Below are positions 21,781 through 53,605 of a stretch of 64,000 nucleotides of DNA, one piece after another. The notes under the pieces are model-generated. The model saw nothing but the letters and a program-made list of their open reading frames with translations, was not told the DNA's origin and ran no database searches. Source of the DNA: Octopus vulgaris. Lineage: Eukaryota. Position numbers and translations under genes: made by a program. The number at the start of each line of letters is the position of its first letter. Positions within the stretch are counted from its first letter, which is position 1. The stretch covers positions 38,316,001 to 38,380,000 of the forward strand of contig OX597839.1 of NCBI GenBank assembly GCA_951406725.2. The letters are read 5' to 3'.

Positions 21781-21960
21781 AGATCGCTAGCCACTACACA
21801 TTCTTTATTTTCTCTCATTGTTTCTTTCTGTGTTCCTTTCTGTGGAAGAGCGTAGGCTCGAAATGTTAAAGACTTTTCACTTTCCAAGCATTATACTAAT
21901 ACATCTGTTTGTTGTCTACACAACCTGTCTTCGTCTTTTGTTTCATTTTGTGAATTCTCT
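21781..21960 (+). mobile_element. Short non-coding element with an A6U hammerhead-like motif (copy 1; motif ~21835-21872)
   Basis: CTTT-CTGTGGA-A-GAGC-GTAG-GCTC-GAAATGTT-AAAG. Homologous to 43455, 54328 and 57372; ends at a (TA)n tract. Confidence 0.7.
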
Positions 21961-33791: not shown

Positions 33792-33828
33792 TTTGTGCCT
33801 AGAGTAGAAAAGAATATATAAGACAGGC

Positions 33829-34387
33829 AAGGCGGCGAGCTGGCAGAAACGTTAGCACGACGGGCGAAATGCTTAGCGGTATTTCGTCTGCTGTTACGTT
33901 CTGAGTTCAAATTCCGCCGAGGTCGACTTTGCTTTTCATCCTTTCGGGGTCGATGTAATCGATTTAATCCGTGTGTCTGTCCTTGTTTGTTCCCTCTGTG
34001 TTTAGCCCCTTGCGGGTAATAAAGAAATAGAAATAGGTATTTCGTCTGCCGTTACGTTCTGAGTTCAAATTCCGCCGAGGTCGACTTTGCTTTTCATCCT
34101 TTCGGGGTCGATTAAATAAGTACCAGTTACGCACTGGGGTCGATGTAATCCATTTGTCTATTTGTCTGTCCTTGTTTGTCCTCTCTGTGTTTAGCCCCTT
34201 GTGGGTAGTAAAGAAATAGGTATTTCGTCTGTCTTTACGTTCTGAGTTCAAATTCCACCAAGGTCGACTTTGTTTTTAATCCTTTCAGGGTCGATAAATT
34301 AAGTACCAGTTGCCCACTGTGGTCGATCTAATCGACTGGCCCCCTAGCCCAAAATTTCAGGCTTTGTGCCTAGAGAAGAAAAGAATA
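33829..34387 (+). mobile_element. SINE type B, one head plus internally restarted tandem units (three bodies)
   Basis: Each tail ...AAAGAAATAG joins directly to the internal GGTATTTCGTCTG of the next unit. Confidence 0.9.
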
Positions 34388-34564
34388 AAGAGGAACCGAA
34401 ATACGTACCGACAAAATATTCCAAACGTAGCCGAAATATTTGGGTTGGATACAATATCGTGGCCGCATCGCGTTACGTTGATCACTCTCTCCAGAAAATT
34501 CGGACACACTGCACAAAATATACAATTGTAGATAGGTAGGTAGATAAATAGATAGCTAGCTAGC

Positions 34565-34703: not shown

Positions 34704-34738
<35 letters not shown>

Positions 34739-34748
34739 AACAACCCTA

Positions 34749-35421
34749 ACCCAAAAAGGTTATTTTAACATACCGAACTACTTGGTAAAATTATTAATTA
34801 TTAATTATTAATTAATTCATTGATTAATTAATTAATCAATTTTACCCTTTTATTTTTATTGAAATATAATTTACTCCCTGATTGAATACTGCAGTTTCTG
34901 CGGGATTACTCGTAACACACGTAGATATTTGAGCATAAATACATGTTCTCATTCGGCTGTATATTTTTGAAAGTGTGGTTGAATATTGGGTATGCGATGA
35001 CGCTTGGTCGTGTACATATTTAATCCTAACACTCTCAAATTTATATTTTGAAACGCTGCACTGAAGATGAGAAATAAGTAAATAAATATAACTTTTCTTT
35101 AATCCCGAAACGCGTATGTAGCTAATCTAAGTCATGTGGATTCGTTATTTTTTCTCTTTGCCTACGTAAAAAAGTGAGTTACTGTCTAGGAGATATTTAT
35201 GGTAACGGAAAAAGTATTTTAACTGCTATTTCTAAATCCGGTGCGTGGCGAAGCAATTAGCTGACCCCTGATTATAATTATACTTATAATTATAGAATAT
35301 TTGTATAATGTTACCCAAAAAGGTTATTTTAACGTACCGAACTACTTGATAAAATAATTAATTATCAATTAATTTATTGATTAATTAATTAATTAATTTT
35401 ACCCTTTTGTTATTATTGATA

Positions 35422-35424
<3 letters not shown>
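34749..35424 (+). mobile_element. Non-coding element with ~115-bp direct terminal repeats and an internal hammerhead, inserted in (TA)n (pLTR- or retrozyme-like)
   Basis: ACCCAAAAAGGTTATTTTAAC.TACCGAACTACTTG...TTTTACCCTTTT starts at both 34749 and 35313. (TA)n flanks both sides, and the HHR lies at 35055-35122. Confidence 0.75.
35055..35122 (+). ncRNA. Type-I hammerhead ribozyme motif, intact core
   Basis: GCTGCA-CTGAAGA-(39-nt imperfect stem II)-GAAACGCGTA-TGTAGC. Stem I GCTGCA/TGTAGC pairs 6/6 with one G-U, stem III is the palindrome ACGCGT, and the cleavage triplet is GUA. Confidence 0.75.
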
Positions 35425-35499
<75 letters not shown>

Positions 35500-36075: not shown

Positions 36076-36169
36076 GCACACACAGACAAACATACACACA
36101 CACATATACACACACACATACACACATACACACACACGTACATACACACACACATATATACATATATGC

Positions 36170-36390
36170 AAGGCGGCGAGCTGGCAGACTCGTTAGCACG
36201 CCGGGCGAAATGCGTAGCCGTATTTCGTCTGCCGTTACGTTCTGAGTTCAAATTCCGCCGAGGTCGACTTTGCCTTTCATCCTTTCGGGGTCGATAAATT
36301 AAGTACCAGTTACGCCCTGGGGTCGATGTAATCGACATAATCCGTTTGTCCCCTCTGTGGTGTTTAGCCCCTTGTGGGCGGTAGTGAAAT
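36170..36390 (+). mobile_element. SINE type B, single unit
   Basis: AAGGCGGCGAGCTGGCAG...GCCTTTCATCCTTTCGGGGTCGATAAATTAAGTACCAG...AGCCCCTTGTGGG. Confidence 0.9.
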
Positions 36391-52349: not shown

Positions 52350-52830
52350 AACAGGTTCAAGATGTGAAGCTATCGATGCTACACAAAGAAGAGAAATAGT
52401 TCAGAAATTTAGGAAAATACTACACGAAACGAAATTTAAAATGAAAACAATCGGGGAAACAAAAACAGACAACTCCATCGAGTCACATTTAGGAAAGAAT
52501 TCATTGCACTGTAAACTGCAGTGTGCGCAACCAACGCACAGATAAAGTACAAAATTAGGAATGTGATGTATCATATGAGATGTATGAAAAAGACGTATAA
52601 GGAAGACACTTGTGTGGAAAGAAGTGTAAGGACACTTTCTCCTATACAGGAGAAAAGGCTCGTAGTGTAGATGAAGGGGTTGGTATTCACTGGCGTGAAT
52701 ACCAGCAAATGGAACGCATCCATGCTCTACCAACATGCAATGCAGAAACACAATGGATCAATGGACAATGATGGAATAATAATTCTTTTAACACATCCAA
52801 AACTTTTAACATTGAGAGACGTTCCAGTGG
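52350..52830 (+). pseudogene. Penelope-like element C-terminal (GIY-YIG endonuclease) remnant, copy 1
   Basis: Fragments IDATQRREIVQKFRKIL...CKLQC, YTGEKARSVDEGVGIHWREY and SMLYQHAMQKHNG resemble the Y.GE..RS..ER..EH...S.L..H....H.G pattern of PLE GIY-YIG domains. Confidence 0.6.
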
Positions 52831-52847
52831 AAGAGACTCTACCTCTC

Positions 52848-53270
52848 GTGTCGTAGGAAGTTTGCTTCTAAACCACACGGTTCTGGGTTCAGTCCCACTG
52901 CGTGACGTCTTGGGCAAGTGTCTTTTACTATAATCTCAGGCCGACTAAAACCTTGTGAATGAATTTGGTAGATGGAAACTGAAAGACTTCCATCGTGTGT
53001 GTGTGTGTGTATGTGAGTCCGTGTTTGTATGTTCGCGTACGCGTACGTGTGTGTTTGTTTTTGTGTCTATGTTTGTCACTATCACAGCTTGACAATAAGT
53101 GTTGGCGTGTTTACGTGCTCGTAACCTAGCGGTTTGGCTAAAGAGACTGATAGTATAAGTACCTGGCTTATGAAAATAAAGTACTGGGATCGATTTGTTC
53201 GGCTAAATTTCTACAAAGCGGTGCTCCAGCATGGTCACCGCCTAATGACTGCAACAAGTTAAAAAGATAA
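52848..53270 (+). mobile_element. SINE type A, diverged, lying between the two GIY-YIG remnants
   Basis: GGTTCTGGGTTCAGTCCCACTGCGTGACGTCTTGGGCAAGTGTC...GCGGTGCTCCAGCATGG. Confidence 0.85.
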
Positions 53271-53289
53271 AGGTAGTTACAACACCGAG

Positions 53290-53605
53290 TGTGCACAACC
53301 AACCTTCAAGTAAACTGCAAAATTAGAAATGTAACGCACCACACGAGATGCTTTGAAGGAAATGTAAGTGTACTACCACGACCTTATACAGGAGAAATGG
53401 CTTGCAGCGTACATGAATGGCTTGTAGAACACTGGCGTGAATACGAAGAAAAGAAATGCATGCATTCTCTAGCAACGTGTCTTACAGATACACAATGCAT
53501 CAATAGACAATGATGGAATGATAATTCTTTATTCACAGCCAAAGTTCTAACATTCAGACAGGATTTCTGGGACCGTTCGGACACTAGAAGCAGAATCCGT
53601 ATCAC
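53290..53605 (+). pseudogene. Penelope-like GIY-YIG remnant, copy 2 (diverged paralogue of ~52510-52815)
   Basis: CKIRNVTHHTRC...YTGEMACSVHEWLVEHWREY...TLEAE; the DNA is clearly alignable to copy 1. Confidence 0.6.

Follow-up and report, generated by a model that had tools for sequence, protein, structure and literature searches.

An old, 5′-truncated solo copy of a dispersed non-coding hammerhead repeat in Octopus vulgaris, likely written by Penelope-like enzymes

Anatomy of the locus

The window considered here is a 64-kb stretch of contig OX597839.1 of Octopus vulgaris, and all positions are given in window coordinates (Table 1). It contains a 564-bp unit that bears a type I hammerhead ribozyme (HHR) motif and runs on into a second copy of its own beginning. 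An initial annotation made from the sequence alone had described a unit of ~564 bp bracketed by direct repeats of ~115 bp and lying between (TA)n tracts, and this description holds: the repeats occupy 34749-34868 and 35313-35425, with a period of 564 and 87% identity over the full repeat, the indels between them sit in an AT-rich stretch, and (TA)n is found on both sides, with a 10-nt filler at 34739-34748 in addition. The interior is non-coding, as had been proposed, the longest stop-free stretch being 94 codons on the minus strand and 44 on the plus strand at a GC content of 27.8%; no reverse transcriptase (RT) or GIY-YIG open reading frame (ORF) lies within the element, and the ORFs listed for the window are microsatellite noise and uninformative. 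Nor does the copy carry terminal inverted repeats (TIRs) or LTR ends, again as first noted.

Table 1. Features of the element and its flanks, in window coordinates
Feature	Position	Strand	Remarks
Left (TA)n target microsatellite	34716-34738		Seen in the sequence; belongs to a longer tract of simple repeats that begins near 34520
5′ junction filler, 10 nt	34739-34748		Seen in the sequence; no match to the unit
564-bp non-coding unit, unit positions 1-564	34749-35312	+	5′-truncated at its left end
First tail copy (start of the unit), with AT-rich quasi-palindrome	34749-34868	+
Type I hammerhead motif (HHR)	35055-35122	+	Predicted cut after 35116
HHR stem I, 6 bp	35055-35060 / 35117-35122	+
HHR core CTGAAGA	35061-35067	+
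HHR core segment GAAACGCGTA	35107-35116	+	Predicted cut 35116/35117
E1, first of the two fixed 3′ ends in the family, near unit position 559	35296-35307	+	Read through in the window copy
E1-to-E2 tail, 118 bp in the window copy	35308-35425	+	E2 at 35425 is the right end of the copy
Right (TA)n target microsatellite	35420-35498		Seen in the sequence; its first bases are shared with the end of the element

Two minor features of the surroundings may be added. The filler and the first bases of the element (34739-34752) can be read as one and a half units of telomere type, which is probably a coincidence, and a common tRNA-like SINE, probably similar to octopus SINEs, is present in several copies at 33827-34340 and 36168-36380.

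The hammerhead motif

The HHR comprises a CUGAAGA core, a bulged U, an extended stem II and a palindromic ACGCGU stem III, and is the sole match of a strict HHR scan across the 64-kb window, in which an Rfam search returned nothing at the gathering threshold. It had initially been called intact, and the core bases are indeed present; stem II, however, contains an A35070-C35105 mismatch together with two changes in its extension (35082 and 35096), and the motif folds no better than shuffled sequences (z -0.82), the corresponding value for a sibling copy (L016) being -2.57. With the core present but stem II damaged, 'intact' was therefore an overstatement. Because the locus holds a single HHR, double cleavage and hence excision of a monomer are impossible there; with stem II damaged as well, the window copy cannot release a unit-length RNA, which would make it a dead end. 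The palindromic stem III is moreover predicted to require a dimer, and metazoan and Penelope-like hammerheads with a short palindromic helix III are thought, in the account given in PMC4209133, to act as dimers.

Across the family, the pair corresponding to 35070-35105 is A-U in 67, G-C in 8 and A-C in 5 of 116 segments, and both core halves are intact in 50 of 95. In an alignment of 27 copies, 92% of the helix cells of the HHR hold paired bases, compared with 28-44% in slid controls, and A-U/G-C exchange is seen in stem II; covariation is thin, with three pairs changed on both sides, a number matched by 103 of 500 shuffles. The unit as a whole folds slightly better than shuffled versions of itself (z -2.16, 4/100 shuffles being as good), a signal that is absent from the E1 region (z 0.41) and from the tail region (z -0.21).

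A minimal hammerhead-like motif occurs elsewhere in the window, in three copies of another repeat at 21845 (+), 57415 (+) and 54448 (-). It has a 4-bp stem II, GAAACGTA and a short stem I, and in its first core segment U replaces A6; these copies may be the other HHR candidates of the initial annotation.

A dispersed family of old copies

A multi-copy unit had been expected, and the family is indeed present in hundreds of places. In the 2.8-Gb genome, a 22-mer from the 3′ half of the HHR has 52 exact copies, the full HHR pattern 167 matches (against 1 for the control) and an 18-mer near E1 279 exact copies (against 0 for the control). As this 18-mer was exact in 6 of 25 independently sampled arms, the 279 genomic copies translate into about 1,100 arms, and the size of the family is roughly put at 1,000-1,100. 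We examined 161 distinct loci with flanks of 1.5-2 kb, chosen by score or motif and not at random; the unit was matched in 159 of them. None contained a long tandem array, all arms being shorter than two units. The family was also detected in contigs from three sequencing runs (organisms A, C and D).

Among 90 segments of at least 300 bp, the distance to the nearest neighbour had a minimum of 5.8% and a median of 9.1%, so that no young copy appeared in this sample, and the nearest relative of the window copy lies 9.0% away. Judged by these distances, the family is old. Its sister subfamilies, at 68-85% identity, retain the non-coding layout. The window copy can thus be described as an old, 5′-truncated solo copy of a dispersed non-coding family. 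Two candidate relatives were rejected: a young family of ~490 bp located 2.46 Mb away (L261) has no meaningful similarity to the unit, and L234, where an HHR with a matching palindromic stem III lies near an opposite-strand Penelope-like fragment, shows no similarity to the unit there.

One segment just before E1 (35244-35315) stands out from the remainder of the unit by the much larger number of contigs and RNA reads that match it, and weak matches to it were seen in L068, L120 and L262. More distant families may possess this segment as well, or the excess may arise partly from its AT-rich palindrome.

Two fixed 3′ ends and scattered 5′ ends

The 159 loci provide 242 outer 3′ ends, 206 of which fall at two fixed points: 113 at E1 (unit position about 559, window 35307, a class taken widely as unit 538-564) and 93 at E2 (unit position about 120, window 35425), with 36 elsewhere. 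The 5′ ends, by contrast, are spread across the whole unit. Simple repeats begin within 40 bp beyond the end in 92/113 cases for E1 and 85/93 for E2 (177/206 in total), raw shares that have to be read against a repeat-rich genome. Seventy-six loci have one arm (45 ending at E1, 23 at E2 and 8 at other points), among them the window copy, which ends at E2, and 83 of the 159 have two arms placed back to back. In 26 of these 83 at least one end is unclassed; in the remaining 57, where both ends are classed, E1 is paired with E2 in 52, E1 with E1 in 2 and E2 with E2 in 3, an excess of mixed pairs with p = 3e-11 in a binomial comparison with 0.5. Within one insertion, the distance between the arms is below the median distance to other copies in 46/49 inverted and 19/22 tandem cases, inverted partners differing by 10.3% compared with a median of 15.8% to other copies; this similarity could reflect a single template RNA, and a shared subfamily would fit it too.

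These patterns alter the initial view of the window copy, which had been taken for a complete element, circularly permuted, with its terminal redundancy as the mark of free permutation. On the left it stops at a 5′ truncation point, of which the family has many at scattered positions, its right end is a fixed end of the family, and the redundancy of ~115 bp is the E1-to-E2 tail, as known for Penelope elements, bounded by two 3′ ends common to the family. Every copy begun at E2 and extended beyond 564 bp must therefore show the tail twice.

In 17 of the 159 loci the sequence passes from unit position 564 to position 1 and on past E2 without any ORF, so it is the non-coding unit itself that repeats. 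The predicted cut site is crossed intact in 122/159 loci, in a sample biased towards HHR-bearing copies, and the templates would therefore have been uncleaved multimers or religated circles, two sources that are indistinguishable here. No enrichment of termini was found at the cut: none of 395 aligned segments ends at unit 360-376, and three start there, at 362-364, that is, before the cut.

Transcripts

Among the 11.5-12.9 million raw reads taken from each of three RNA-seq runs (about 6% of each run), 131-146 align to the window unit, in both orientations and concentrated near E1, and 60-71% of them continue into unlike sequence. No aligned read reaches at least 99% identity to the window copy, in runs that may be from other species and may miss circles, and with the same reservations no pile-up of read starts or ends was seen in them, the cut site included. 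The sparse reads fit read-through of other copies of the family. As species label and library type may not suit, these reads are a weak test of the linear or circular RNA of ~560 nt which the initial annotation had anticipated from this locus.

Penelope-like elements and the search for a coding partner

Penelope-like elements (PLEs) that combine RT and GIY-YIG domains, the latter sought with the profile PF01541, are abundant in this genome; several have 781-codon frames, and their copies likewise end at (TA)n. They carry the linker motif CxxxxCxxC, which assigns them, by motif and not by tree, to the Neptune/Nematis type as described in PMC8557442. One large family (L065-L090), probably young, has many open frames of 781 codons and a variant HHR-like motif, which lies about 60-70 bp ahead of (TA)n and has ACATGT as its palindromic stem III. 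A second large family (L092-L120), with 10,141 first-look candidates, has a long CA-rich 3′ region and a frame of 665 codons in L111. Degenerate linker and GIY-YIG fragments that are 28-38% identical to the protein of the L111 family also occur within the window, at 52372-53456 (+).

A coding element that shares the unit was found neither in 30 GIY-YIG loci, where only a stray fragment turned up in L068, nor in 30 loci of the second PLE family, where the matches were L091, which is the same as L011, and a fragment in L120. PLE fragments occur in the flanks (1.5-2 kb) near four unit-bearing loci among the 161, none consistently joined. The main 781-codon family was rejected as a donor of the sequence, since its HHR and its ends differ; it could still act on the unit in trans. 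The search scored 150 of 6,136 and 150 of 10,141 candidates, and because this is a small part of them, a coding partner may yet exist.

Proposed mechanism and alternatives

Which process would leave behind two fixed 3′ ends, ragged 5′ ends and back-to-back arms in AT-rich repeats? Perhaps, the answer lies in enzymes that the repeat does not encode. The proposal of a PLE- or retrozyme-type retroelement inserted in (TA)n is supported, and the insertion footprint makes mobilisation of the family by a PLE likely. We accordingly regard it as likely that the window holds an old solo copy of a non-coding HHR repeat that was written by a borrowed PLE reverse transcriptase and GIY-YIG endonuclease. The PLE protein would bind an RNA of the unit, either multimeric or circular, cut AT-rich DNA and begin reverse transcription inside the RNA, at E1 or at E2; random arrest of synthesis would generate the 5′ truncations, and extension of both DNA ends, one from E1 and the other from E2, would generate the back-to-back arms. 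In the window copy, synthesis would have started at E2, proceeded through E1 and the ribozyme for slightly more than one unit and then stopped, and this start and run would yield the 115-bp redundancy without further cause. These thoughts find some support in work with a purified PLE protein, described as cutting AT-rich DNA, extending both strands and starting at two internal sites, one on either side of the tail, with HHR cleavage not required (PMC11167929). A circular template is possible for the family. More tentatively, and with somewhat less than even likelihood, the E1+E2 pairing may arise from a pair of PLE enzymes that primes both ends of the break on a single small RNA circle under a strict two-primer rule. 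If so, this rule (E1 on one side, E2 on the other) would have persisted in long-diverged subfamilies of a parasite that encodes no protein.

It is conceivable, but in our judgement unlikely, that the unit is instead the pseudo-LTR (pLTR), or another 3′ part, of an autonomous PLE and the copies its 5′-truncated fragments. The tail, the two ends, the inversions and the HHR are all features of pLTRs as described in PMC8557442 and PMC3846280, the partner search was partial, and in L011 a GIY-YIG frame stands directly upstream of unit position 388. That frame, however, is truncated, and in the 29 other copies of its PLE family a different 3′ region follows, which led us to reject L011 as an autonomous partner; the passage from unit end to unit start and beyond in 17 loci without an ORF, as well as the non-coding layout shared by the sister subfamilies, also speak against a pLTR. 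Copies longer than one unit might instead have been produced by satellite-like duplication of local DNA after insertion, local amplification of this kind being discussed by Li et al. 2026 (bioRxiv 10.64898/2026.07.22.740005), and the two tail repeats of the window copy are indeed about 10% apart. Yet this divergence equals the age between the arms of other insertions (10-12%), and the duplicated part stops exactly at the family-wide E2 in many unlinked loci, beside (TA)n, which largely refutes duplication and makes it quite improbable. Hardly credible at all is a retrozyme at this locus that is complete and functional and gives rise to a linear or circular RNA of ~560 nt with ends at 35116/35117: one full unit with all HHR core bases and a slightly favourable fold are outweighed by the lone HHR with its damaged stem II, by the finding of two same-strand HHR segments in just 3 of 159 loci, and by the RNA-seq reads, although the species or libraries of those runs were possibly unsuited.

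Relation to known retrozymes and Penelope-like elements

Returning to the preferred reading of a repeat written by borrowed PLE enzymes, the 564-bp family is a new family of a known kind, namely a non-LTR retrozyme or non-autonomous PLE: it functions like the latter, and by the structure of its unit it belongs with the metazoan non-LTR retrozymes, the window copy being a solo monomer. As described for those retrozymes in PMC7229834 and by Li et al. 2026, the unit is non-coding, low in GC and equipped with one type I HHR, and the family shares with them the head-to-tail junctions, the many solo monomers and the presence of PLEs in the same genome. Its length falls inside the 51-972 bp range given by Li et al. 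2026 and exceeds the 220-390 nt reported for coral, mussel and axolotl monomers. In contrast to those elements, the family is old and without long arrays, its cleavage and circles are predicted only, and the window copy has one HHR where Li et al. 2026 count two as the criterion for an active retrozyme. Plant LTR retrozymes differ in having a type III HHR in each LTR, whereas the window HHR is of type I and is not contained in the repeated stretch.

PLEs are described as inserting at microsatellites with 5′ truncation and as carrying, optionally, a tail on one of their two inverted repeats (PMC8557442; PMC3846280). The octopus family resembles endonuclease-bearing (EN+) PLEs as so described in its two fixed 3′ ends around a tail, the tail on one inverted arm, the random 5′ truncation, the AT-rich or microsatellite targets and the HHR; it differs from them in the lack of an RT/GIY-YIG frame and of a sequence link to a coding family among the loci examined, and in a tail of about 120 bp compared with the 30-40 bp described. 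The HHR follows the type I hammerheads of PLEs and metazoans, as presented in PMC4209133, in its 6-bp helix I, the unpaired base between A9 and stem II, the G10.1-C11.1 pair and the palindromic helix III, and departs from them in a stem II to which an internal loop and a second helix are added and which is partly broken in the window copy. Perhaps closest in organisation are the MRC1-type non-autonomous elements of Chlamys, which according to PMC8557442 are also non-coding, with pLTRs and head-to-tail insertions; these are algal, however, and share their 3′ ends with a known autonomous family, whereas the 564-bp family has no such partner among the loci examined.

A literature search returned no account of retrozymes in cephalopods. 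Though genuine, the window locus is unremarkable within its class, being an old and probably dead-end copy, and its significance is modest: it adds a genomic case to the proposed link between animal retrozymes and PLEs. Moreover, the count of 52 mixed pairs in 57 puts a number on a PLE tail that had been described merely as 'optionally present' on one inverted repeat.
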